Shown: positions 22,112 to 37,508 of the stretch, piece after piece
How the letters are laid out: each line of letters starts with the position of its first letter
How positions within the stretch are numbered: position 1 is the first letter of the stretch
Assembly: GCA_963796105.1 (NCBI GenBank)
Contig: CAWCKJ010000002.1
Span: 128,001 to 192,000 of the forward strand
Source of the DNA: a candidate division FCPU426 bacterium
GTDB taxonomy: Bacteria; Oederibacteriota; Muellerivitia; Muellerivitales; Muellerivitaceae
Reading direction: 5' to 3'
Length of the DNA stretch: 64,000 nt
Made by a program: the position numbers and the translations under genes
The notes under the pieces: model-generated
Databases searched by the model: none
The model's input: only the letters and a program-made list of their open reading frames with translations
Told to the model about the DNA's origin: nothing

Positions 22112-22205
22112 GCCACGGATTCAGGGGATGCACTTGGATAGAATCTAGAAAACAGGCTTTAAGCTTATATTTTTTAAATCCCATGTATCCCATGCATCTG
22201 TGGCT
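22112..22205. repeat. Inverted nonamer-type repeat bracket (GCCACGGAT...ATCTGTGGC)
   Basis: gccacggattcaggggatgcac ... aaatcccatgtatcccatgcatctgtggc; related arms at 26431-26538, 26729-26759 and 33917-33945. Confidence 0.7.
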
Positions 22206-22328
22206 AAATTTTATTTTGGACAGATGTGAATCCTTTTCAATTTTTCCAGGAATCATATTTAGGAATTGATCTCGATAGTTACAATGAAATGCGGAGGGAA
22301 TCAACAATTTCCTCAATGCTGGAAATGC

Positions 22329-25338: not shown

Positions 25339-25875
25339 TTAACAAACACGATAGGCTGCCTTTGGCTCTTCAAGAAAACCAATCCGATGTTTGGGTTTCT
25401 CCGGTGTTTTCATCAGCTCTCGAATAGCGTTAAATACACCCTGGATTTGGGAATCGTGGACCCCCACTTTCTTTTCCAAATCATCAAGTTTTCGGGCCAG
25501 GTCTTTATGTGTGGACAAAACCTGGCGAAGGCGTACAAAGGCACGCATAATCTCAATATTCACTCGTACGGCCTTCTTGCTCCTTAAAACACTGGAAAGC
25601 ATAGCCACACCTTGCTCCGTGAAAACCCTAGGTAATTTGCGAGTGCCACCCCAACTTGATGTTCCATTCTGGAACATCAAGTTTTCGAACTCGATTTTAT
25701 TAATGAAAAACGAGAAATCATCGGGAAACCGATCCTTGTTCCTGGTAACAGCTTTGTTTAAATTCCGCGTTTCAACGCCATACAATTGAGCCAAATCACT
25801 ATCCAGCATGACCTTTCGTCCCCGGATCAAATGAATTTTTTTCTCGATACCGGAAACCGGGATTAATTCGGCCAT
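25339..25875 (-). CDS. ORF6N-domain DNA-binding protein
   Basis: IRGRKVMLDSDLAQLYGVET..LN.AV.RN..RFP.DF, FTEQGVAMLSSVL.S, IMRAFV, C-terminal RIGF. Confidence 0.92.
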   Translation of the reverse strand: MAELIPVSGIEKKIHLIRGRKVMLDSDLAQLYGVETRNLNKAVTRNKDRFPDDFSFFINKIEFENLMFQNGTSSWGGTRKLPRVFTEQGVAMLSSVLRSKKAVRVNIEIMRAFVRLRQVLSTHKDLARKLDDLEKKVGVHDSQIQGVFNAIRELMKTPEKPKHRIGFLEEPKAAYRVC

Positions 25876-25910
25876 AAGCGGTCCTTTTTCAAGAACACTT
25901 CACACACAAA

Positions 25911-25937
25911 GGGGTCAGGCTTACATTTTACACTTTA
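25911..25937 (+). repeat. Solo copy of the tyrosine-transposase TIR
   Basis: GGGGTCAGGCTTACATTTTACACTTTA, one mismatch to 31088-31114. Confidence 0.9.
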
Positions 25938-25949
25938 GGCTAAAACCCT

Positions 25950-26760
25950 TCTCACCACAGGTTCCTGCGGAACCACAGAGTACACGGTAAAGCGTCCTCT
26001 TGGGTACGGCTAAAAACATCAAAACAACAACTTCATCTCACCACATGCCAGCCCTCCATAAAACTAATAGGGGGCTGGTATCGTACCAATCTCCACATAT
26101 GCTTAAAGGAAGATTGGCACAGGGACTCATGCCGAACCACCGTAAGGCTTTAAAGGAAAGTTCGGTACAGATTTACTATAAATCTGCCCCGGCAATCCTC
26201 TCACTCGGCTGGTAGCCTCATGCGGCCTGTATAGCACCGATTTCATTAACTGATTTATGGAAAATCGGCGCAGAGACTCAGCTAAAACAACCATCTTTTA
26301 CCACAGGTTTCTTCGAAACCACAGAGTACACGGTAAAGCGTCCTCTTGGGTACGGCTAAAACATCAAAACAACTACGTCATCTCACCACAGTTGTGCTTC
26401 GCACAGCACAGAGACTCAGCTACTACTTTTGCCACGGATGTAACGATCAACCATAAAAACATATAGAGAGATCGGCACTATACCAGCCCCCGTATCAGCC
26501 TTATGGAAGGCTGGCATGCATGGGATACATGGGATTTTAAGCAACTTCAGATCGTGACAAGAGCTTTGCTCTTGCGCCCGTTGGGCTTTATGGCGCATCC
26601 GCAGGCCTCGGAAAAATGGATTTTCCCGGTGGCCGTCGGTTCCGCCATAGTACACGATCAATAACCAAGGCTTCATTTAAAACTTAGAATTCAAAACTCA
26701 AAATTCATTCTGTAAAGAATGCCTTGCCCATCCCCCTGCATCCCCTGAATCCCAGCTAAA
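25950..26760. repeat. Nested hairpin-repeat cluster 1
   Basis: CCACAGGTT..AACCACAG scaffold units; twin-hairpin elements at 26046-26121 and 26441-26518; 143-bp composite at 26130-26272; 110-bp element at 26550-26659. Confidence 0.85.
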
Positions 26761-26792
26761 ACTCAGTTATTAACTGTTATCGTACGCACAAA

Positions 26793-26841
26793 GGGGTCAG
26801 TGGTTCGAGAACCTCACCATCCGCAGGCATTTTACACTTTA
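26793..26841 (+). repeat. Interrupted solo TIR copy
   Basis: GGGGTCAG [tggttcgagaacctcaccatccgcagg] CATTTTACACTTTA; the insert resembles the REP-like hairpin at 1115-1133. Confidence 0.75.
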
Positions 26842-26936
26842 GCTAATTTTTTATAACTATCGGTAAACCAATGGGTATTCCTACATGAAGGCCGGAATTA
26901 TAGCATAACCATCTTGGAAATGACGTGAAAACCTTA

Positions 26937-27922
26937 CATGCTTCTGTATTAAGTGACCCTTGAAATAAAGGAATACATAGGTATACTGTCCGCTACGGGA
27001 GGTGGTACATGAGCTACCAGCGGATGAAAAGCATTAAAATTCTGAGGAAAATCCACACGGAAGAAGAAGCCCGCCAATGGGTGTGGAGATGCCGTTTCGG
27101 CGGGAAAGACTTTGTTTGTCCCCAATGTGAGGGCGAAAGCTTCTGGCAACACCAGGCCAAGCCTGAAGTGAGGGAATGTGACTATTGCCGGAAACGTCTT
27201 CGGCTTCGCGCCGGGACGATTTTTGAAAGCTCCAAGCTGCCTCTTTTAACCTGGGTCAGGGCCATCAGTTTGATGATGCAGGGCAAACGGGGTATTTCGG
27301 CCCTGGAACTGAAGCGGCATTTAAATCTTTCGGATCATTCGGCATGGCTTCTATTGCATAAGATCCGGGAAGGTCTTAGGCAAAAGGACGAAAGCTATAC
27401 TCTAAAGGGCGTCATTGAGTTGGATGGGGCGGTTTTTGGGAAAAAGGCCAAGGAAAACCAAGTGGAAGTCTTGGTGGCGGTGGAAAGCAAGGAATGGGTG
27501 GATGAGAATGGTTGCAAGAAGGAAAAAGCGGGTTTTGCCAAGGTGAAGGTAGCTATGGAAACCAAGTGGGAGAGCCAGGAATTCGTGAATCAGACTATGG
27601 AAAAAGGCTCTTTCCTCAACACAGATGCTTCGCCAGCCTTGCGTGAACTCAAAGGAGTGGAGGCAGACTACCGGGTGATGGCCAATGACCCGAAAGAGTT
27701 GGAAAGTTGGTTGCCCTGGGTACACCGGTTCATTTCCAACGCCAAGGCCTGGATCATTGGAACTCATCATGGCGTTGATGCTAAGTATTTAGGCCGGTAT
27801 CTAAGTGAATATGCCTATCGGTTCAACCGTCGTCATGATCCCGATTCCTTATTTCACCGTGCTTTGACCGCATGTGCCTTAGCAAAACCCATTACAGCAC
27901 GGTCACTTTGTGCATAAGCATA
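26937..27922 (+). mobile_element. IS1595-family insertion sequence, apparently intact
   Basis: Imperfect TIRs ATGCTTCTGTATTAAGTGACC and GGTCACTTTGTGCATAAGCAT (17/21 match); flanked by 8-bp direct repeat AAACCTTA (26929-26936, 27923-27930). Confidence 0.92.
27009..27917 (+). CDS. tnp: IS1595 (ISXO2-like) DDE transposase
   Basis: Zn ribbon CPQC...CDYC, AGTIF..SKLPL, IELDG, NTD, GTHHGV..KYL..YL.E..YRFNRR. Confidence 0.95.
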   Translation: MSYQRMKSIKILRKIHTEEEARQWVWRCRFGGKDFVCPQCEGESFWQHQAKPEVRECDYCRKRLRLRAGTIFESSKLPLLTWVRAISLMMQGKRGISALELKRHLNLSDHSAWLLLHKIREGLRQKDESYTLKGVIELDGAVFGKKAKENQVEVLVAVESKEWVDENGCKKEKAGFAKVKVAMETKWESQEFVNQTMEKGSFLNTDASPALRELKGVEADYRVMANDPKELESWLPWVHRFISNAKAWIIGTHHGVDAKYLGRYLSEYAYRFNRRHDPDSLFHRALTACALAKPITARSLCA

Positions 27923-28191
27923 AAACCTTATGTTAACTGTTTAACTTTTCTCCCTTCTTTACATTTTTAAGAGTAAAATTCAAGCCATGGGGGGATTTCC
28001 AGAGGGTGTTTTCAGGTCTTTGGGATATGAGATTGACGCCATCAAATGGACGTCGGATTAAGCCTTACTCCTAATTCCTAATTTCTTTTCAGCGGTTCTT
28101 AACTCCTAACCCCGCCATGAAAGCGCCGCCGATACCCCCGGCGTCCGCTTCAGGGTCCTCATTTTTAATGCCTAACTGCTCTTGAGGGGGG

Positions 28192-28593
28192 TTATTTCTT
28201 TTTGCGGGGGCGGGTTTTTGATTTGGATTTACTCACCTTGTATTCAGCGTGGGGTTCTTGAAGACCTGGCGGCAGTATGTTTTGGAGCTTCTGTTTTAAA
28301 ACCGGAAGATCCTTTACCGTTACTCCCCAAACAACTTCAAGGTCTACTTGGAAATAATCATGGACCAGTATATGCCGCATTCCCTGGATGGCATCCCATG
28401 GTACCTCGGAATGTTTATTCCGGAATTCAGGGGGTACTTTATATGCCGCTTCACCCAAGATTTGGAGATAGTGGAGGATATAAACCTGAATCAATTCGTC
28501 TGCATTGAAGGCTTTGCGGCCCTGCGAAGAATATTTCTCGATCCGATGGATGGCATCAAGCATATCCTGGACCCGATTCAAATGGTCCCTCAT
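28192..28593 (-). CDS. hepT: HepT-like HEPN RNase toxin (DUF86) with basic C-terminal tail
   Basis: LQILGEAA, VPW..I.GMRHILVHDYF (RX4HXY). Confidence 0.9.
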   Translation of the reverse strand: MRDHLNRVQDMLDAIHRIEKYSSQGRKAFNADELIQVYILHYLQILGEAAYKVPPEFRNKHSEVPWDAIQGMRHILVHDYFQVDLEVVWGVTVKDLPVLKQKLQNILPPGLQEPHAEYKVSKSKSKTRPRKKK

Positions 28594-28880
28594 AACCGAA
28601 CGGCCTCCTGAAGGACTCTATCACGGAAGGAATCCCGAAGGCCTTTTTCAGATACGACATCAACCGGACGGCCTAAGAGATGTTCCAGGTCCGTTAAAAG
28701 CCCCCCCATATCCAATAAGGTGCGGCCTGGTTCCATGCGGACGAGAAAATCCACATCACTTCGTTTATCCGAGTCTCCGCGAGCAACTGAGCCAAAAACG
28801 CTTATTTCGCGGGCACCATGGCTGCTGGCAAGTTTAAGGATCTTGTTGCGTTTTTTTTGGAGGATTTGACCGATTGTCAT
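28590..28880 (-). CDS. mntA: MNT minimal nucleotidyltransferase antitoxin
   Basis: VFGSVARGD....SDVDFLV, L...LGRPVDVV. Confidence 0.92.
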   Translation of the reverse strand: MTIGQILQKKRNKILKLASSHGAREISVFGSVARGDSDKRSDVDFLVRMEPGRTLLDMGGLLTDLEHLLGRPVDVVSEKGLRDSFRDRVLQEAVRL

Positions 28881-28883
28881 GTT

Positions 28884-29072
28884 TTATCCCGCTCGGTTAA
28901 CTTGCTGAAGGCCTTCCAGGTAACAAGTAATAGCTTCTTTCGCGTTTTCCAAGGCCTCCTTGATGGTCTCACCTTGGGAGAAGCAACCGTCCAAAGCCGG
29001 GACTCGGACATTGAAACCGCCCTCATCGGCATGTGCCAATCGGACATGAAAATAAATCGGGATTGGTACCAT
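28884..29072 (-). CDS. hicB: Short HicB-like antitoxin (no cognate hicA adjacent)
   Basis: DEGGFNVRVPALDGCFSQGETIKEALENAKEAI; ATG at 29072 preferred to the longer ORF start. Confidence 0.8.
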   Translation of the reverse strand: MVPIPIYFHVRLAHADEGGFNVRVPALDGCFSQGETIKEALENAKEAITCYLEGLQQVNRAG

Positions 29073-29187
29073 ACCAGCCACATTAAAGTTTTGTGGAAGG
29101 CTTGCATGTTCCAGAACAACGTCAAGGGACGACCCATTGGGTCGCCACTTGGCCGGGACATGGTCCCCGGCCAAGTACACGGCTTGT

Positions 29188-29205
29188 CCCCGGCTAAAGC
29201 CGGGG
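29188..29205. repeat. IS200/IS605-type end hairpin remnant
   Basis: CCCCGGCTAAAGCCGGGG followed by CCTGAAGGC resembles IS200/IS605 subterminal palindromes; no tnpA/tnpB/iscB adjacent. Confidence 0.45.
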
Positions 29206-29349
29206 CCTGAAGGCAGCCGGTCAAATTTCATGTTGACACCTTTCTAAAAGGCTTCTGATGGCTTCCATCAATCTGCCTTTGAATTGGAATTATAACCTGG
29301 TAAGACACTCATATGGCCAGGGAACATAAAACAGAAGGGGGTCTCTATT

Positions 29350-29994
29350 TTATGTATTCGGCCCTTTGTTATTCGCTTTTTTGAGAAGTTTTCGATAGAG
29401 ACCGCCAAAAGGGCCTTCCAGGGCGCTTTTCTCGAAATATTCCGCTTCTTCCCTCCAAGTCATGCCTTTAGTCGCCTTGTGGATTTTGCGTTGGATCTCT
29501 TCTTTCATTTTTAAGGCATCGAAACCCTTGATGGGCTTAATTTTTTTAATTTTGCGATGCCGCGTTTTTGGTTTGGGTTTACCTGGTTTATATATGGAAT
29601 GGATTTCGTGGAAGCCGGGTGGATTGAATTCTCCAATAGGTAGACGCCGGATTCGGACATCATCTTTCTCAATAATGATGATGGCGCCATTTATAAGAGG
29701 TTCCTCGATGATTGACCAATTTTTTTCAAGGTTACCGGCCAGGTTAGCGACGGTCATTTTTTGCGTGCGGAATATCACGACTGAAGGCCTGGATTTTCCT
29801 GAAAAAGCCAATATTTTCCCAAAATCCAAATCGTGGGTTAAAAGTACAGAACCCCTTGACTCAGCGAGGGATAAAATAACCTCGTCGCCCGCTTTACTAT
29901 GACCAAGTTTTCCTGAGTGTATGGCTTGATGACCAAGGCGGGCCAAGTGCTGGCAAAGTGATGGGGAAAGGTTGTTATCTAAAAAGAATTTCAT
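29350..29994 (-). CDS. DUF5615 PIN-like toxin with long C-terminal extension
   Basis: MKFFLDNNLS...D..IL..A.....LLTHDLDFG...RIRRLPI, followed by about 90 extra aa. Confidence 0.85.
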   Translation of the reverse strand: MKFFLDNNLSPSLCQHLARLGHQAIHSGKLGHSKAGDEVILSLAESRGSVLLTHDLDFGKILAFSGKSRPSVVIFRTQKMTVANLAGNLEKNWSIIEEPLINGAIIIIEKDDVRIRRLPIGEFNPPGFHEIHSIYKPGKPKPKTRHRKIKKIKPIKGFDALKMKEEIQRKIHKATKGMTWREEAEYFEKSALEGPFGGLYRKLLKKANNKGPNT

Positions 29995-30230
29995 GGACGA
30001 GAAGGTATGAAGCGTTCCTCGGCCTCAAGGGAGCAATAGGCCAGGGCCTGAAGGATGTCCTCTTCCTCGAGTTCGGGCCATTCTTTTAGGATTTGGCGAA
30101 TGGTCATACCACCGCTCATGTAAGCCAATATACTGGCCACCGGCATGCGGTAACCCCGAACGCAGGGTTTCCCGAAACATTTTTCCGGATCGAATGTGAT
30201 TCGCTCAAATTTGTAATGGTGGTGTTCCAT
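29991..30230 (-). CDS. DUF433 antitoxin
   Basis: RITFDP..CFGKPCVRG.RMPV..IL...GGMT...IL..WPELEEEDI..AL.Y. Confidence 0.9.
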   Translation of the reverse strand: MEHHHYKFERITFDPEKCFGKPCVRGYRMPVASILAYMSGGMTIRQILKEWPELEEEDILQALAYCSLEAEERFIPSRP

Positions 30231-30322
30231 AACGCTGCCTTTCAGCGGTAATTATAACATTGGATGGGAATGAATGGTATTCGGCAACTCCTAATTCCGA
30301 ATTGCTAATCGTTCTTTAGGAG

Positions 30323-31084
30323 TTATTTCTTTTTACGGGGCCGCGTTTTTGGTTTTCTTTGCCTTTGCACAGATTTACTATAAATCTGCGCCGATCTACC
30401 GTGAAGAGACATTGAGATCGGTGCAATACCAGCCTCTTTAAAGTTTTTTGGAGGGCTGGCATGCGCCGATCTACCGTGAAGAGACATTGAGATCGGTGCA
30501 ATACCAGCCTCTTTAAAGTTTTTTGGAGGGCTGGCATGCGCCGATCTACCGTGAAGAGACATTGAGATCGGTGCAATACCAGCCTCTTTAAAGTTTTTTG
30601 GAGGGCTGGCATGCGCCGATCTACCGTGAAGAGACATTGAGATCGGTGCAATACCAGCCTCTTTAAAGTTTTTTGGAGGGCTGGCATGCGCCGATCTACC
30701 GTGAAGAGACATTGAGATCGGTGCAATACCAGCCTCTTTAAAGTTTTTTGGAGGGCTGGCATGCGCCGATCTACCGTGAAGAGACATTGAGATCGGTGCA
30801 ATACCAGCCTCTTTAAAGTTTTTTGGAGGGCTGGCATGCGCCGATCTACCGTGAAGAGACATTGAGATCGGTGCAATACCAGCCTCTTTAAAGTTTTTTG
30901 GAGGGCTGGCATGCGCCGATCTACCGTGAAGAGACATTGAGATCGGTGCAATACCAGCCTCTTTAAAGTTTTTTGGAGGGCTGGCATGCGCCGGCAATCT
31001 TCTCCTTCGGCTGGTGGCCTCAGGAGGCCGGTATTCAGCGGGGGATTCGTGGACGGCGCCGCCGGACGGCAGGATTTCCAGAAC
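30323..31084 (-). pseudogene. 3' remnant of a HepT-like gene, split by the repeat array and truncated by the transposase TIR
   Basis: 31084-31031 reads VLEILPSGGAVHESPAEY and 30369-30323 reads ...QRKPKTRPRKKK*, mirroring LQNILPPGLQEPHAEYKVSKSKSKTRPRKKK* of 28192..28593. Confidence 0.7.
30387..30986 (-). repeat. Perfect tandem array, 8 x 75 bp, twin-hairpin unit
   Basis: Identical units tgcgccgatct-accgtgaagagacattg-agatcggtgc-aa-taccagcctctttaaagttttttggagggctggca, period 75 bp. Confidence 0.97.
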
Positions 31085-31087
31085 AAA

Positions 31088-32102
31088 GGGGTCAGGCCTA
31101 CATTTTACACTTTACAAATAATTCGCCATTTTTAGAATATGCTTATGCCAAGACCCAGGCGAATTCATTATGAGGGGGCTGTTTACCACGTGACCTCCCG
31201 AGGGAACGAGCGGCGCGAGATTGTCAAGACCGACTCGGACCGATGGATGTTTTACAGACTATTGGGGGAAATGATCGAGGAAAATAAGGTGCTTTGCCAC
31301 GCCTGGGTACTGATGAACAACCATTACCATCTCTTGCTGGAGACGCCCGCAGCCAATCTTTCCATCGCGATGAAGCATTTAAACAGTATTTATACCCAGC
31401 GTTTTAATAAAAAATATCAAAGGGCCGGCCATTTATTCCAGGGGCGGTTCAAGGCCATTGTGGTTGAGAAGGATAGCTACTTGAAAGAGTTATGCCGGTA
31501 TGTGGTTTTGAATCCCGTGAGGGCGAAGGCGGTCAAGGCTCCGGGGGATTGGAAGTGGAGCAGTTACCGCGCGACTGCCGGCCTGGAAAAGGGGGAACCG
31601 TGGCTGGAAACGGATTGGATTCTCAGTCAGTTCGGAAGTACCCTCAATGAGGCACGGAAAAGCTATCGGGCTTTTGTGGCTGGCGGAATCGGGAGCAAGG
31701 TTTCCCCCTGGGAAGAACTTTATTCCCGCGTATATTTGGGAAAAGAGAAATTTTTGATCAAGGTGCATGAGGCGGGGCGAAAGCATAGGCATTTGGATGT
31801 CCCGAAGTACCAGAAACAAGTGGTGAAGGCTGACCCGGAAAAGATTCTCGGGAAAATCGCCGAAGTCTATGGGGGAAAACCCGAGGAGATTTTGCAAGCC
31901 GGAAGAAGGGGGATGGATTCCCGGGACGCGGCGATCTATTTGCTGAAGAGGGAAGCGGGGCTAAGTTTGAGGGAGATCGGCAAAAGGATGGGAGTGGGTT
32001 TTTCGGCGGTTGGGAACCAATGGACCAGGATCAAGAAGAGGATGCCGGTGGACCGGGAATTCGCCAAAAAAGTGCTAAAGTGTAAAATGTAGGCCTGACC
32101 CC
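31088..32102 (+). mobile_element. TIR-flanked Y1 tyrosine-transposase element (TIRYT/RAYT-like)
   Basis: Perfect 27-bp inverted repeats GGGGTCAGGCCTACATTTTACACTTTA (31088-31114) and its reverse complement (32076-32102); the transposase stop codon lies in the right TIR. Confidence 0.9.
31139..32092 (+). CDS. HUH/Y1 (REP-associated-type) tyrosine transposase with C-terminal DnaA-like HTH
   Basis: YHVTSRGN, LMNNHYHLL (HUH), GHLFQGRFKA, YVVLNPVRA, WKWSSY; C-terminal RDAAIYL...GLSL.EIG..MG. Confidence 0.93.
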   Translation: MLMPRPRRIHYEGAVYHVTSRGNERREIVKTDSDRWMFYRLLGEMIEENKVLCHAWVLMNNHYHLLLETPAANLSIAMKHLNSIYTQRFNKKYQRAGHLFQGRFKAIVVEKDSYLKELCRYVVLNPVRAKAVKAPGDWKWSSYRATAGLEKGEPWLETDWILSQFGSTLNEARKSYRAFVAGGIGSKVSPWEELYSRVYLGKEKFLIKVHEAGRKHRHLDVPKYQKQVVKADPEKILGKIAEVYGGKPEEILQAGRRGMDSRDAAIYLLKREAGLSLREIGKRMGVGFSAVGNQWTRIKKRMPVDREFAKKVLKCKM

Positions 32103-32135
32103 ATTGTGGTGTGGGGGGAATGGAGGTTTAAATTG

Positions 32136-32873
32136 ATGGATTTAATCAAGGGGGCGGTGAGGCGCTTGGCGGGGCTTTTCGGGCTGGAGGTCAGGCTCGC
32201 GCCGACCAGGACCGGGGAATACGGGAACGTGTTCGCCCGCGCGATCTACAATCCCTGGAACCTGGACAAGGCCTTCCAGGAGGTTTACGCCTCCCTGGGG
32301 CCCGCCACGGTGGTGGACGAGTACTGCTGTTACGAGCTCTGGAAGCTGGTGGAGCAAAGCGCGAAGCTGAGGGAGGGGTGCCTCATCGAGGCCGGGGTCT
32401 GGCGCGGGGGGTCCGCCGCCCTCATCGCCCGGCAGGCCAGGAATTGCGGGATCAAGGACAAGGTCTATCTCTGCGACAACTTCAAGGGGGCGGTCAAGAC
32501 AGGGGAAAAGGACACCTATTACAAGGGCGGGGAATTCACCGCCAACAGGCTGGAGCCGGAGGAACTGATCTTCAAAAAGATGGGGTTGGACAACGCCGAG
32601 ATACTGGAGGGCATCTTCCCCGAGGAGACGGGGCACAGGGTCAAGGACCTGAAATTCCGGTTCTGCCACATCGACATCGGGGTTTACCAGGCGGAGAAGG
32701 ACATCGCGGACTGGATCTGGGAAAGGATGGTTCCCGGGGGGATGGTGGTCTTCGGCTGTTACGGCTTCAAGGGGTGCGAGGGGACCACGAGGTACGTGAA
32801 CGAGCGGATGGACAGGCCGGACAGGCTGGTGATCCAGAACCTCAACGGCCATGCGATATTCGTGAAGATTTGA
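32136..32873 (+). CDS. TylF/MycF/NovP-family O-methyltransferase
   Basis: EAGVWRGGS, LCDNFKG, GIFPEET, FCHIDI, GG...F..YG; ATG at 32136 follows a GGAGG RBS. Confidence 0.85.
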   Translation: MDLIKGAVRRLAGLFGLEVRLAPTRTGEYGNVFARAIYNPWNLDKAFQEVYASLGPATVVDEYCCYELWKLVEQSAKLREGCLIEAGVWRGGSAALIARQARNCGIKDKVYLCDNFKGAVKTGEKDTYYKGGEFTANRLEPEELIFKKMGLDNAEILEGIFPEETGHRVKDLKFRFCHIDIGVYQAEKDIADWIWERMVPGGMVVFGCYGFKGCEGTTRYVNERMDRPDRLVIQNLNGHAIFVKI

Positions 32874-32904
32874 TAAGGAAAATTAAAACTTAAACAACTT
32901 CAAT

Positions 32905-34005
32905 TTCACCACAGGTTTCTTCGAAACCACATGCCGAACCTCATTTAAGCATTCAATGAAAGTTCGGTACAGATTTACTATAAATCTGCCCCTGCAATCC
33001 TCTCACTCGGCTGGTAGCCTCATGCGGCCTGTATAGCACCGATTTCTTTAACTGCTTTATGGTGAATCGGCGCAGAGTACACGGTAAAACATTCTCTTGG
33101 GTACAGCTAAAACATCAAAACAACTACGTCATCTCACCACATGCCAGCCCGCCATAAAACTAATAGGGTGGCTGGTATCATACCAATCTCCACATATGCT
33201 TAAAGGAAGATTGGCACAGGGACTCAGCTACTTCAACAACATTTAACCACAGGTTCCTGCGGAACCACATGCCGAACCTCATTTAAGCATTCAATGAAAG
33301 TTCGGTACAGATTTACTATAAATCTGCCCCTGCAATCCTCTCACTCGGCTGGTAGCCTCATGCGGCCTGTATAGCACCGATTTCTTTAACCGCTTTATGG
33401 TGAATCGGCGCAGAGTACACGGTAAAACATTCTCTTGGGTACAGCTAAAACATCAAAACAACTACGTCATCTCACCATCCCACTATGCTCTATGAGCTTC
33501 GATGGACAGGCAGCTTCAGATCGTGACAAGAGCATGGCTCTTGCGCCCTGCGGTCTTTATGGCGCATCCAAAGGCCTCGGAAAAATGGATTTTCCCGAAG
33601 GCCGTCGGTTACGCCATAGTACACGATCTATACATAACCTCTAACCTCTGAAAAAGTCGGCCATCGCCTCCTTTTTCAGAAAACAAATTATGGAAACCCC
33701 ACGATTTCCTGCGGAAATCTTTGGGGTCGAAACCTCTGTTGGCCGCTTTTAATAGTTTTTCAGAGGTTTCAACCTTTTAAATCTTCTACTGTGATGCGTT
33801 AGCACTGTGGTTCCCGTAGGAACCTGTACCGATCATCCATAAAAATTTAGAGAGATCGGCACTATACCAGCCCCCATATCAGCCTTATGGAAGGCTGGCA
33901 TGTGGTTAATCTGTTTATCCCCTGCATCCCCTGAATCCCAGCTAAGATACTTTTTTTTCCTGTGTTGCGTTAGCACTGTGGTTCTGTAAGAACCCGTGGT
34001 GAATC
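32905..34005. repeat. Nested hairpin-repeat cluster 2
   Basis: 143-bp composites at 32932-33074 and 33270-33412; twin-hairpin elements at 33142-33218 and 33827-33902; 110-bp element at 33519-33628; TIR-bounded segment at 33643-33768. Confidence 0.85.
33643..33768. mobile_element. Putative MITE
   Basis: 13-bp terminal inverted repeat AACCTCTGAAAAA...TTTTTCAGAGGTT, internal hairpins, no ORF. Confidence 0.5.
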
Positions 34006-34095
34006 CGGGCATTGGCGGAAACCTTTGTTCCCCCAGTGGAAAGTTGTACAATGATTTTGATGGTTTTGGTGGTTGAAAATCGGAAAGGGGAAGCC

Positions 34096-34302
34096 ATGCG
34101 ACAAGTTCTTATTTACCCAGGAGAAGACGGTTATTGGGTGGCTGAATGTCCCAGCCTTCCGGGCTGTATTAGCCAAGGAAAGACACGGGAAAAAGCGATT
34201 CAAAACATCAAGGAAGCCATTGAAGGTTATATCGCCTCATTGAAAGACGACCATATCAGCATTCCCAAGGAACATTTCGAGGCCATGTTAGTAGCCATAT
34301 GA
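34096..34302 (+). CDS. hicB: HicB antitoxin
   Basis: EDGYWVAECPSLPGCISQGKTREKAIQNIKEAIEGY. Confidence 0.9.
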   Translation: MRQVLIYPGEDGYWVAECPSLPGCISQGKTREKAIQNIKEAIEGYIASLKDDHISIPKEHFEAMLVAI

Positions 34303-34520
34303 GTAAACTCCCCCGTTTATCGGGAAGGGAATGCGTTCAGGCACTTTCCAAAGTCGGCTATGTTTTTGTCCGGCAACATTCTTCCCATATCATCCTCCGC
34401 CGTAAAGAACCCTTTTCACAATTGACAGTGCCGGACCACAAGGAATTGGACCGAGGCACACTCCGCGCGATCATCCGGCAAGCTGGTTTGCAGGTGGAGG
34501 GTTTTACAAAATTATCATAA
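34299..34520 (+). CDS. hicA: HicA toxin
   Basis: LSGRE..QAL.K.G..FVRQ.SSHI.L...LTVPDHKELDRGTLRAII. Confidence 0.9.
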   Translation: MSKLPRLSGRECVQALSKVGYVFVRQHSSHIILRRKEPFSQLTVPDHKELDRGTLRAIIRQAGLQVEGFTKLS

Positions 34521-34647
34521 AAACCGTGTCTTAAAATCTGCTTCTTCGCCGCCAACCTGCCTTGATTAGTTCTGCGGACTATCGATTGCACTGCCACTCG
34601 AAGCGTTGGGTGCGGACTGCTTTATACAAGTTTTGGTTTGGAGATGA

Positions 34648-35964
34648 ATGAATAAGGCCCAAAACACCGCCGCGGGGTTCCTTGTAAAGTCCCTCGCGAG
34701 CCTGCTATCCAAGAAGCAGATGCTCAACAAGGCCGCCCTGATGACGGGGGCCAAGGTCCTGGGCATGGGCATCGGGGCGGCGGGAACCATCTACGCGGCC
34801 AGGTGCCTGGGGCCCCGCAGCCTGGGACTGTCGGGAATGGTCCAGAACATCGCGGGGCAGGGCATGCTCGCCACGGAATTCATCTCCACCACGGTCCTGA
34901 TCCGCGAGTACAAGAACGCCAGGGACGCCGGGGACAGGGACAGGATCGTCCAGGCCGCCAACGGCTTTTGGCTCCTGCCGGGCCTGGTTTTCTCGGTCCT
35001 GGCGGCGTTGTTCTTGATCCTCAAATGGGTCCCAGGCGATTACCAGACCGCCGGCTGGTTTTTCATTCCCTTGATCCTCCTGAGTTCCGTCCAGCCGGAT
35101 TGGATCTTCCAGGCGGAGGAGAAACAGCAACACCAGTCGCTTTTCGCGCTCATCCAGCCCCTGCTGATGACGGGCCTCTACCTCATCTGGTTCAAGCCGG
35201 GCGCGCAGGCCAGCGCCGATTTGTTCGTGAAATCCTCGGCGGCGGCGGTGATGTTCTTTGTTTACTGGCGGGGAATTTTCAAGCTTAGCTCCCTCAAGGG
35301 GTTCTTCATCCGGATCGATTTTTTCAGGGACATGAGGGACCTGGTCCTGAAATCCCGCTGGCTTTTCATTTCAGCAATCGCCGTTTACGTCTACAGCACC
35401 CTGGAACAGCCCCTTTTGGGCTGGCTTTTCTCGGTGGAGGAGCTCGGGAAATACCGCACAGCCTCCTCCGCGACGAACGCGGCCTGCTCCTTTTTCAACC
35501 TGATCCCCCTCATCCTTTACCCGAGGTTCATCGAGTGGCGGAAAAGGGGGGAAGAGGTCCTTTGGGTGAGGCAGTTGAAGCTCACGGCGCTTTTCTCGGC
35601 GGGCGGGGGCATCCTGGCCCTGGGAGGGTTTTGGCTGATCCCGCTTCTTTACCCCTACGTCTTCGGGCCTTCCTTCGCGGGAGCGGCGGTGCCCTGCGCC
35701 CTGCTGCTTCTATCGGAAATCATCGTGGTCATCAGCGGGCTCTTCAGCTGGGGCTTGTTGACGGACCACACCTACGACAAATTCGTGTCCTCCACCCTGA
35801 TCGGCACGGCGGTTTTCTCCCTCGCGACGAACCTTTTGTTCATCCCGAGGTTCGGGATGATGGGGGCGGCGCTGGTGCATTTGGCGAGCGAGATTCTGAT
35901 ATTGGGGGTGTTCTTCGGGCTGGCTTACAGGAGAATCGGGAACATTAGGAAGAAACAGGTTTGA
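34648..35964 (+). CDS. Second Wzx-like oligosaccharide flippase
   Basis: AR.LGP...G, WIFQ..EK, LLG......LG.Y, LIP.FG..GAA; multi-TM. Confidence 0.82.
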   Translation: MNKAQNTAAGFLVKSLASLLSKKQMLNKAALMTGAKVLGMGIGAAGTIYAARCLGPRSLGLSGMVQNIAGQGMLATEFISTTVLIREYKNARDAGDRDRIVQAANGFWLLPGLVFSVLAALFLILKWVPGDYQTAGWFFIPLILLSSVQPDWIFQAEEKQQHQSLFALIQPLLMTGLYLIWFKPGAQASADLFVKSSAAAVMFFVYWRGIFKLSSLKGFFIRIDFFRDMRDLVLKSRWLFISAIAVYVYSTLEQPLLGWLFSVEELGKYRTASSATNAACSFFNLIPLILYPRFIEWRKRGEEVLWVRQLKLTALFSAGGGILALGGFWLIPLLYPYVFGPSFAGAAVPCALLLLSEIIVVISGLFSWGLLTDHTYDKFVSSTLIGTAVFSLATNLLFIPRFGMMGAALVHLASEILILGVFFGLAYRRIGNIRKKQV

Positions 35965-35971
35965 AGAAATT

Positions 35972-36213
35972 CTTTTCTTTTTTTGTCCCCATCATTCAAA
36001 CCCTCATTTAAACAATGGGGTTTCGTTATAAAATGTATTTATTGCTGGCTCGCTCCACACATTCCCCTGTGGGTTTCTAGTTATCTGAACTTGCGAATTT
36101 CCTTTTAATATTCCTAGCGATAAGGCCTAGAGGGCTCCCCTTACGCTTATATGAGTTGATCCTTTATGCCGCTTGGGTGGGGTTTTCATGAAGGGGACGG
36201 GGTTTTTTAAAAC
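35972..36213. repeat. ~240-bp structured non-coding repeat, copy 1 (copy 2 at 39709-39952)
   Basis: Shared blocks CCCCAT..ATGGGG, CGCTCCACACATTCCCCTGTGGGTTTCT, TAGAGGG.TCCCCTT.CGCT and TTCATGAAGGGG.CGGGGTTTT. Confidence 0.8.
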
Positions 36214-36344
36214 AAAAGCAAACCTTACCTTGCGGCCTACGAGACTTTGATACTGGGGGGGGTGTTCTTCGGGCTGGCTTACAGGAGAATCGGGAAAATA
36301 CGTAGAAAAATATAATTTTGAATTGAAGGAAAAAACCACATATC

Positions 36345-36850
36345 AACACAGGTTCTTTCAGAACCACAGCAACAACCTTGATTTAATACGGCTAAAAAAT
36401 ATCAAAAGCAACAACTTCAACATTTAACCACAGGTTCTTTCAGAACCACAGTAACATCCTCAATTTGGTACGGCTAAAAACATCAAAACAACAACATCAT
36501 CTCACCACAGGTTTCTTCGAAACCACATGCCGAACCTCATTTAAGCATTCAATGAAAGTTCGGTACAGATTTACTATAAATCTGCCCCGGCAATTCTCTC
36601 ACTCGGCTGGTAGCCTCATGCGGCCTGTATAGCACCGATTTCCTTAACCGATTTATGGAAAATCGGCGCAGAGACTCAGCTAAAACATTCTATGGGTTGC
36701 GGCTAAAAACATCAAAACAACAACATCATCTCACCACGGGTTCCCGCGGAACCACAGCAACAACCTCGATTTAAAACGGCTAAAAAATATCAAAAGCAAC
36801 AACTACAGATAACCCCTTACCAAGGCACGGGTTTCTTCGAAACCACAGTA
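36345..36850. repeat. Nested hairpin-repeat cluster 3: about five ~80-bp scaffold units, one carrying the 143-bp composite (36528-36670)
   Basis: Recurring CAC(A/G)GGTTYY-N3-RRAACCACAG ... CGGCTAAAAA(C/AT)ATCAAAA(G)CAACAAC. Confidence 0.85.
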
Positions 36851-36914
36851 AGACAAACATATTCCGGTTTACCACAGGGTTTTTTTAACGCAAATGCAAA
36901 CCGGCATTTAAAAT

Positions 36915-37205
36915 TTATTTTGATTTTGGGGATAAATCCATGGCGCCGTGGACAACAGCCAAGACATCTATTTGATCGGATTTAATCCGGTAAAAAATGC
37001 GGTAGGGGCCTTCTATGACTTCTCGTATTTGATCCGCGTCAAACTCCGGTACTCTGCGGCCGGATGTGGGAAAATCGGCAATTTGTTTGGACCTGCCGGT
37101 AAGGCGATCGACCATCCGTTTAGCGTAATCCGCTGAATCCCGAGCGATATGGGCGTGGAGCGCGTTGAGATGGTCTTCAGCCGAGTGAGTCCAACGGACC
37201 CTCAT
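36915..37205 (-). CDS. RelE/ParE-family toxin
   Basis: VRWT..A...L..L...IA.DS...A, FP.SGR.VPE, RE.I...YRI.Y, VLAVVHG. Confidence 0.9.
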   Translation of the reverse strand: MRVRWTHSAEDHLNALHAHIARDSADYAKRMVDRLTGRSKQIADFPTSGRRVPEFDADQIREVIEGPYRIFYRIKSDQIDVLAVVHGAMDLSPKSK

Positions 37206-37390
37206 CCAGGAAGACCGTATTTGGCCCGGATATCTCCTACGTCTTTAGTAAGACCAGCTTCGCTATCGGAAAGCCCCCGCTCAATGGCTTCCAAGACATA
37301 GATCTTGTGCATTAAATCATCCCATGTGGCGTTTGAGGGCATTTGGTCAATCAGTTTGTGAGCCTCTTCTTTTTTCATGATCTTGGACAT
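37202..37390 (-). CDS. Antitoxin partner of the ParE toxin
   Basis: KEEA.KLID.MP.NATWDDLM..IYV...IERGL.D..AG; overlaps the toxin start. Confidence 0.8.
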   Translation of the reverse strand: MSKIMKKEEAHKLIDQMPSNATWDDLMHKIYVLEAIERGLSDSEAGLTKDVGDIRAKYGLPG

Positions 37391-37508
37391 GGGTTGCCTC
37401 CCGCTTTCATAATGTAGTTTATCAAGATGAAATACCCAAATCAATTCGGGCTGAAATGATTGAAAAGGCCAATCCCCGCGTTTAAAACTATAAATCGAGA
37501 AACAGGAA

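Follow-up and report, generated by a model that had tools for sequence, protein, structure and literature searches.

Twin-hairpin repeats with matching linker and target dinucleotides in a candidate division FCPU426 bacterium

Repetitive extragenic palindromic (REP) sequences and bacterial interspersed mosaic elements (BIMEs), which go with TnpA-REP proteins (REP-associated tyrosine transposases, RAYTs), are imperfect extragenic hairpins found in inverted pairs and tandem arrays (PMC3333891, PMC3479197, PMC8266576). Genomic REP junctions are too variable for the mechanism by which such repeats spread to be read from them. In vitro, one enzyme, TnpA-REP Mb, has been found to choose its dinucleotide with the help of a guide: it picks C|A through T2 and G4 of the GTAG tag that lies 5′ at the hairpin foot, and cleaves at an altered site when the tag is altered (PMC8266576). 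In REPINs, an inverted doublet is the unit, singlets are rare and tandem clusters occur (Bertels and Rainey 2011, PMC3116915). Here we describe gene-less twin-hairpin elements of about 75 nt in a 64,000-nt stretch of a candidate division FCPU426 bacterium (GenBank assembly GCA_963796105.1, contig CAWCKJ010000002.1, positions 128,001 to 192,000; hereafter the window), which apparently form an undescribed REP/REPIN-like variant with natural retargeting. Directly observed are their structure, the obligate pairing of two hairpins, precise empty sites with one dinucleotide, a fixed orientation and a rule that ties the linker between the hairpins to the flanking bases.

The elements resemble REPs and BIMEs in the traits named above, in a 5′-foot tetranucleotide that matches a C|A site through its second and fourth positions and in stem irregularities that recall REP stems. 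However, their tag reads A-T-N-G and is fused between the two hairpins and common to both, their junctions are fixed at the hairpin feet where those described for REPs lie at variable CT sites, and their stems and loops are longer and AT-rich. They also fall into three natural target classes, and no REPtron (a cognate tnpA-REP gene flanked by elements) was found in the source genome or at the relatives' loci examined. REPINs share with them the inverted doublet, the rarity of singlets and the tandem clusters, but the twin-hairpin elements have a 3-nt spacer and two separate, covarying hairpins instead of one long hairpin, their empty sites are symmetric and precise where the REPIN deletions described are asymmetric, and no linked cognate RAYT was found for them. 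Among the repeats reported from Haloquadratum (Dyall-Smith 2011, PMC3119063), PATEs are likewise short and gene-less, with near-terminal palindromes and no duplication, and SMR-A repeats likewise lack a known mobiliser and use other mobile repeats as their targets. Unlike PATEs, the elements have ends that differ from those of the source genome's insertion sequence (IS) of the IS200 type, which does not mark them as IS200/IS605 derivatives, and a target of 2 nt rather than 4–5 nt; their hosts are GxxExxY-type repeat arms and other hairpin repeats, not IS605 ends. Some families of terminal inverted repeats (TIRs) are self-complementary dimers at short distance, as our elements are (PMC3733652), yet the latter share no motif with the bacterial family's GGGGWSAS-type TIRYT repeats, a comparison that leaves the published consensus figures to one side. 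The window has no Rfam match, and neither Rfam nor the literature text searched (few subscription papers, no consensus figures or supplements) contained a description of the twin-hairpin family.

Structure, junctions and copies of the twin-hairpin element

The element core reads TGCC-[hairpin 1]-GGTA, three linker bases, TACC-[hairpin 2]-GGCA, and mostly spans 73–78 nt; each copy is bounded by two identical dinucleotides, of which empty sites have one. The first-pass annotation of the window had recognised the two-hairpin architecture but gave the linker as 2 nt, whereas the actual linker (T-N-G) has 3 nt; assigning the closing A:T and G:C pairs to the stems would leave 1 nt. In an alignment of 55 copies, from which the structure itself was defined, 91.6% of the cells pair and 12 of the 19 named pairs show compensatory change, a score matched by none of 500 shuffles. 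With 30 shuffles per element, the first 60 among the 126 distinct elements gave a mean folding z of −3.7 for the top strand and −3.9 for the bottom strand. An irregular stem position lies near each hairpin foot (G.T in 51/55, unpaired in 42/55), and the element termini are also imperfect inverted repeats of ∼17 bp. Of six circular folds, five gave two separate hairpins in a dumbbell that carries a one-base bulge.

More copies exist than were first noted: an iterated nhmmer profile search of the 4.98-Mb source genome yielded 197 loci, 159 of them full length, with 126 distinct sequences and nine head-to-tail arrays of 2–8 copies each. As expected of REP/BIME repeats, these are imperfect palindromes (REP range about 20–40 nt) in many copies and mostly extragenic; 14 of the 197 loci lie inside crudely called open reading frames (ORFs) >150 aa, and 8 of these lie in a spurious ORF formed by one array itself. 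No replichore bias was evident by eye. Lone halves were rare, which identifies the doublet as the unit: a half-model search of the source genome yielded few matches, and lone-half patterns gave 3 and 5 matches, mostly degenerate full elements, in 31 genomes of the same bacterial family. Five of these eight were inspected with about 100–130 nt of flank; among the lone-half matches, L319 is a hairpin 1 and L323 a hairpin 2 standing on its own.

All eight copies listed in the first pass, four simple and four composites of 143 bp, are present in the window. On the plus strand, the simple copies lie at 26046–26121 (linker TCG, preceded by CA at 26044–26045 and ending in CA) and 33142–33218 (CA/CA flanks with linker TCA, an exception to the linker rule given below). 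The minus-strand copies had been placed 2 nt off: their cores are 26441–26516 and 33827–33900, so that with the trailing CA (26439–26440 and 33825–33826) they span 26439–26516 (linker TAG, degenerate 3′ foot, leading CA 26517–26518) and 33825–33900 (linker TAG, leading CA 33901–33902). The composites, all on the plus strand, are found at 26130–26272, 32932–33074, 33270–33412 and 36528–36670, and the first of them illustrates their order: hairpin 1, a module of ∼66 nt (about 26168–26233), linker TAG, hairpin 2 and CA. Each composite is an ordinary element with a separate repeat module lodged at its linker, and an uninterrupted counterpart of the composite subtype occurs at G000:C2:63815. The ∼66-nt module is also found alone and is itself interrupted by twin-hairpin elements; in addition to its copies in the window, it was seen at G000:C2:410638, C4:1119879, C4:1195430 and C4:1322522.

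Two further minus-strand loci had been overlooked. The first is a tandem array at 30387–30988, in which eight identical 75-nt elements (linker TTG) are joined by single CA dinucleotides inside a copy of the ∼66-nt module. The second, at 29032–29108 (element 29032–29106, linker TGG, leading CA 29107–29108), lies within a hicB-like ORF (28884–29231, minus strand) and keeps it in frame, as its 75 nt amount to exactly 25 codons between VVLEH and ADEGG. The insertion point is just ahead of the stretch over which this ORF can be aligned to the window's other HicB.

Globally, the 159 full-length copies were flanked by CA/CA (130), CG/CG (13), TA/TA (4) or mixed dinucleotides (12). None was flanked by TG/TG, which argues for a single orientation at CA. 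The CA/TG junction proposed in the first pass is therefore conserved across the genome, but it is not always CA and follows the linker, with CG or TA at some copies. For 45 of 89 distinct non-tandem junctions, the joined flanks with one dinucleotide were present elsewhere in the genome (at most one mismatch, 15 exact), whereas an empty version with a doubled dinucleotide was found for none of the 89; only two target bases are conserved. In the window, the empty sites 25955–25991 and 26301–26337 (both plus strand, one CA each) match their filled partners 33247–33425 and 32909–33087, which hold the composites 33270–33412 and 32932–33074, identically. The third pair, the reverse complement of 22176–22204 (one CA, in a GxxExxY-type repeat arm) and the filled 26431–26538, differs by one base. 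All three pairs are paralogous host repeats rather than alleles.

The linker rule and a proposed mechanism

The linker covaries with the flanking dinucleotide. Among the full-length copies (12 linkers not called), CA/CA flanks went with TNG in 119 cases, CG/CG with CNG in 12 and TA/TA with TNA in 3, with two exceptions among copies with matched flanks; all four flank bases agreed with the linker in 116 of the 126 distinct copies. Family-wide patterns that picked copies by a non-TNG linker alone and left the flanks free gave the same classes: two TA/TA copies with TTA in another genus (G047), and in G066 four TA/TA copies with TCA (plus one CA/TA) and four CG/CG copies with CTG or CAG. One CG/AG copy with CAG was also obtained, as were two CA/CA copies whose first linker base is not T (L208 and L215); all other matches were regular TNG elements that the patterns had picked up in reverse complement. 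Pooled non-tandem copies fell into 2 target clusters for CG, 3 for TA and 54 for CA. On an element tree (115 elements, poorly resolved, linker not masked), the CG and TA classes each required three changes, at least two of them forced by supported branches, so that targets were switched on more than one occasion.

Of the 122 distinct elements whose linker was called, 101 have A-T-N-G at the foot of hairpin 2. The full GTAG tag is absent, as previously noted, but T2 and G4 of GT[AG]G are kept at this 5′ foot, while G1 and R3 are not. Because the same T2/G4 rule lets TnpA-REP pick C|A, the linker is likely a degenerate REP-type guide, and each element would carry its own insertion guide. Composites have no T next to hairpin 1, yet retain T-A-G before hairpin 2 together with their CA flanks, which points to the foot of hairpin 2 as the determinant. 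The first-pass description of a REP-like, non-autonomous and precisely inserting family agrees with the junction counts and with Rfam; we nevertheless do not class it as a REP family, because neither the defining tag nor a cognate gene was found.

Our preferred reading, to which we assign a probability of roughly 45%, is that these gene-less repeats, with a linker matching both flanks, are moved as single-stranded DNA (ssDNA) that is cut at C|A, between the two flank bases; the enzyme would be of the HUH/TnpA-REP type, would act in trans and would probably differ from the neighbouring transposase. A-T-N-G at the hairpin 2 foot would be the guide, with G4 pairing with C and T2 with A, as in TnpA-REP Mb, and a single guide would serve both element ends and the target. 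Cuts at C|A on both ends would release A-hairpin1-TNG-hairpin2-C, which could close as a dumbbell in which T-N-G, with one base bulged out, pairs with the newly formed C-A junction; the donor site would regain a single CA. Insertion at another C|A would then give CA..CA with no true duplication. Tandem arrays may arise by insertion at the element's own end or by rolling-circle copying, and a change in the linker would retarget a lineage. Circle excision and tandem amplification have also been proposed in models for BIMEs (PMC3333891).

Several observations weigh against this reading. No enzyme for the elements, linked or parental, was identified in searches of the source genome and its relatives, and no gene family recurred beside the elements at the loci of relatives and metagenomes. 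Nine of the 28 element-positive genomes, three of them 98–99% complete, had no match to PF01797 (Y1). The two strands fold equally well, unlike the strand-specific substrates of REP and IS608 systems. Compared with the congener G066, six of six intergenic regions had the whole 200–500-bp block or its equivalent missing or replaced, and a precise empty allele was found at none of them. Ten of the 126 distinct copies depart from the linker rule; L208 and L215 have CA/CA flanks with a first linker base other than T, and L066 is a CG/CG copy with linker TCG. Independent retargeting events also appear to be few. Chimeric flanks do not settle the cut position: CA..CG on two TNG copies (G000:C4:499469 and L219) fits a cut inside the dinucleotide, where it has been described to fall (PMC3479197), but several other chimeric copies do not fit a C|A cut. 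Finally, plain extension of each hairpin predicts the same pairings as a guide would.

With ends that are fixed, empty sites that are precise and natural variants whose linker changes along with the target, the family provides genomic support for DNA-guided target choice. The 75-nt substrate offers explicit predictions, namely the C|A cut, the dumbbell circle and retargeting by two bases, and it could serve as bait for the enzyme. The family further links two poorly described systems, TIRYT transposases and GxxExxY repeat cassettes. If the enzyme is indeed new, the elements would be among the smallest self-programming mobile elements. The far-reaching version of this proposal, in which a 75-nt strand represents a new class of minimal mobile DNA (excised as a covalently closed dumbbell, programming its own target with two bases on either side of a one-base bulge, repeatedly retargeted in nature, a parasite of nuclease-cassette repeat arms and served by an enzyme that is not one of the known Y1 transposases), seems doubtful to us.

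Host repeats and distribution

Most insertions are found in intergenic hairpin repeats of other kinds, above all in GxxExxY-type arms. Using an arm-start motif defined in the present analysis, we found 58 of 89 junctions within the motif that starts these arms, as opposed to 6.5% of 5000 random intergenic CA sites; the remaining junctions were in other hairpin repeats or in unique DNA. GxxExxY (PF13366) genes lie between core genes and are flanked by inverted arrays of short CAC-containing units (loci L259–L288, in 28 family genomes, including G000:C4:1488850–1489197), and inverted arms flanked most of the 30 genes examined. Arms without a gene also occur, in the window for example at 22113–22215 and 26384–26420. 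Such arms build up large mosaic blocks between genes, and a congener has no such blocks at the orthologous sites. Since whole blocks are absent in this way, and since near-identical element copies in G051 and G076 share one common host context, part of the copy number likely stems from movement of the host. The host arms also contain short single-hairpin modules (6–7-bp stem, 3-nt loop TTC or TGC, then ACA) between CA dinucleotides, at window positions 25958, 26304, 26389, 32912, 33250, 36349, 36431 and 36508, and these are possibly a second class of mini-insert.

A mobiliser that is not an HUH protein, possibly the GxxExxY-cassette machinery or a host nick-and-seal activity, might capture and release the self-paired dumbbell. 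We regard this as unlikely, though it would suit the preference for GxxExxY-type arms, the presence of GxxExxY genes in 17 of 17 high-quality family genomes (including those without Y1), the absence of whole host blocks at orthologous sites, the host positions shared by element clades and the equivalence of both strands in folding. However, only 2 of 30 GxxExxY loci had an element within about 1.5 kb, which indicates no special link, and GxxExxY is present in the element-negative genomes G059 and G070. In addition, 54 target clusters and the in-frame insertion into unique coding DNA of hicB place insertions outside these arms. To our knowledge, PD-(D/E)XK nucleases do not religate DNA.

A covariance model of the element matched 28 of the 31 genomes of the bacterial family. 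In a sample of the phylum, it matched 9 of 10 family genomes other than the source genome and 1 of 50 from other families, where the match was marginal (E 1e-3). Pattern scans gave at least 16 loci in genome contigs and 117 in metagenome contigs; they demanded CA and T-N-G and were therefore not used to test the linker rule. Of 98 scan loci examined, 95 had a protein match to the source genome, and for 71 of these the identity was ≥55%, as would be expected within a single lineage. The phage, plasmid and viral contig collections searched contained no element. Three copies also occur in G084, a genome of 8.9 Mb, but the flanking proteins there are 56–75% identical to those of the source genome, so this case does not show spread outside the lineage. 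The range so far is thus one family of uncultured bacteria, which limits the general impact of the finding.

The adjacent Y1 gene and other candidate mobilisers

Adjacent to the elements, the window carries a Y1 transposase gene (ORF 31139–32092, plus strand), which the first-pass annotation had put forward as mobiliser of the elements. Its product combines Y1_Tnp with a C-terminal DnaA_C-like helix-turn-helix (HTH), scores above the NF047646 cut-off and has a predicted His-Tyr-His motif and a candidate catalytic Tyr; a search of the PDB with this protein returned no match. The gene is bounded by inverted repeats of ∼31 bp (31082–31113 and 32077–32107) with a GGGGTCAG core, unlike the twin-hairpin element. 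With inverted repeats of the form GGGG[AT][CG]A[CG], it classifies by sequence as a TIRYT of subclass 2.1.2, and the unit at 31082–32107 fits the published TIRtrons (Di Nocera 2013, PMC3733652; subclass 2.1, Quentin 2018, PMC6006769).

TIRYTs are the only common TnpA-REP-like proteins of the bacterial family and pass the NF047646 cut-off, and their HTH could bind the ∼17-bp imperfect inverted termini of the element. That they, including the adjacent gene, carry out the guide-directed ssDNA mechanism set out above nevertheless seems quite improbable. In the source genome, 4 of 16 TIRYT copies were within 500 bp of an element and 7 of 16 within 2 kb, compared with a gene background of 7% and 13% (binomial p = 0.024 and 0.002). 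This closeness was also seen for unrelated genes of the same hot spots, such as AAA ATPases (5 of 9 within 2 kb), comparison with IS1595 (11 of 57) gave a Fisher p of 0.056, and part of the TIRYT loci are duplicates of one region. Co-occurrence of the transposase with the elements did not extend to the 31 family genomes: all three element-negative genomes have a TIRYT-like gene, whereas in G015 (99% complete, 5 contigs), which has elements, none was found. Moreover, none of the 20 Y1 loci examined in relatives had an element nearby; TIRYT genes were present at 15 of these loci, including 5 in G066 and G067, two genomes rich in elements. Quentin et al. (PMC6006769) likewise reported no REP-like repeats near this subclass. 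Mobilisation by the adjacent gene is thus weakly supported; we have lowered rather than dropped this proposal because fragmented assemblies can lose multi-copy IS and elements can outlive their enzyme.

Other candidates fared no better. Tyrosine recombinases (36 matches), the single IS110 gene and IS1595 showed no special link to the elements, and ORF clustering in the source genome revealed no recurring transposase beside them. The subclass 2.4-like RAYTs of G071 and G079 are accompanied by repeats of the GTAG type, with no element close by. Weak NF047646 matches turned out to be a conserved Y1-like protein that lacks both the His-x-His motif and the Tyr and that the element-negative G059 also has. 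This protein of ∼105 aa is syntenic and single-copy throughout the family (G000:C4:794779–795093; L304–L310, L312) and is possibly a domesticated, catalytically dead TnpA-REP relative; a second degenerate Y1-like protein is encoded at G000:C4:597424–597873.

A recombinase with a 2-bp core, of the IS110/IS1111 or serine type, could integrate a small circle at a matching dinucleotide, with the linker match reflecting folding selection only. Matching left and right dinucleotides, a single one at empty sites and a two-fold symmetric junction with inverted arms of ∼17 bp would fit this, and IS110 elements, of which the source genome has one, are described to insert into REPs and to form gene-less minicircles (bioRxiv 2025.01.17.633520). 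Yet the target flanks, with 54 clusters, are too diverse for a long RNA-guided target, the IS110 ends examined are unlike the element, and a core model has no need for a linker that matches target-derived bases, all of which leaves little room for this explanation. A conventional miniature inverted-repeat transposable element (MITE) with short TIRs, a 2-bp target duplication and a DDE transposase is very improbable. The TG-starting ends, the ∼17-bp imperfect inverted termini and the identical flanking dinucleotides would fit it, but it is opposed by the single orientation at CA (no TG/TG copy in 159, where a duplication would allow either), a linker–flank covariation left without explanation and the scarcity of lone halves in the 31 genomes, with no parent element, that is, a gene enclosed by the same ends, among the lone-half matches, in the source genome or in the family genomes.

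The IS110-family element of the source genome, with sub-terminal inverted repeats, lies at G000:C13:24756–25859 (see also L245 and L247), and in G066 an IS110-family end sequence abuts TIRYT terminal repeats. TIRYT terminal repeats also occur alone, without a gene, at window positions 25911 and 26793, the latter broken by a small hairpin insert. An IS1595-family element, one of 57 copies in the genome, occupies 26929–27930, with an 8-bp direct repeat at 26929 and 27923. The surrounding region of the window (25339–37444) is a polysaccharide gene cluster interleaved with toxin–antitoxin-type genes (HepT/nucleotidyltransferase, HicB-like, DUF5615/PIN and ParE) and an ORF6N gene.

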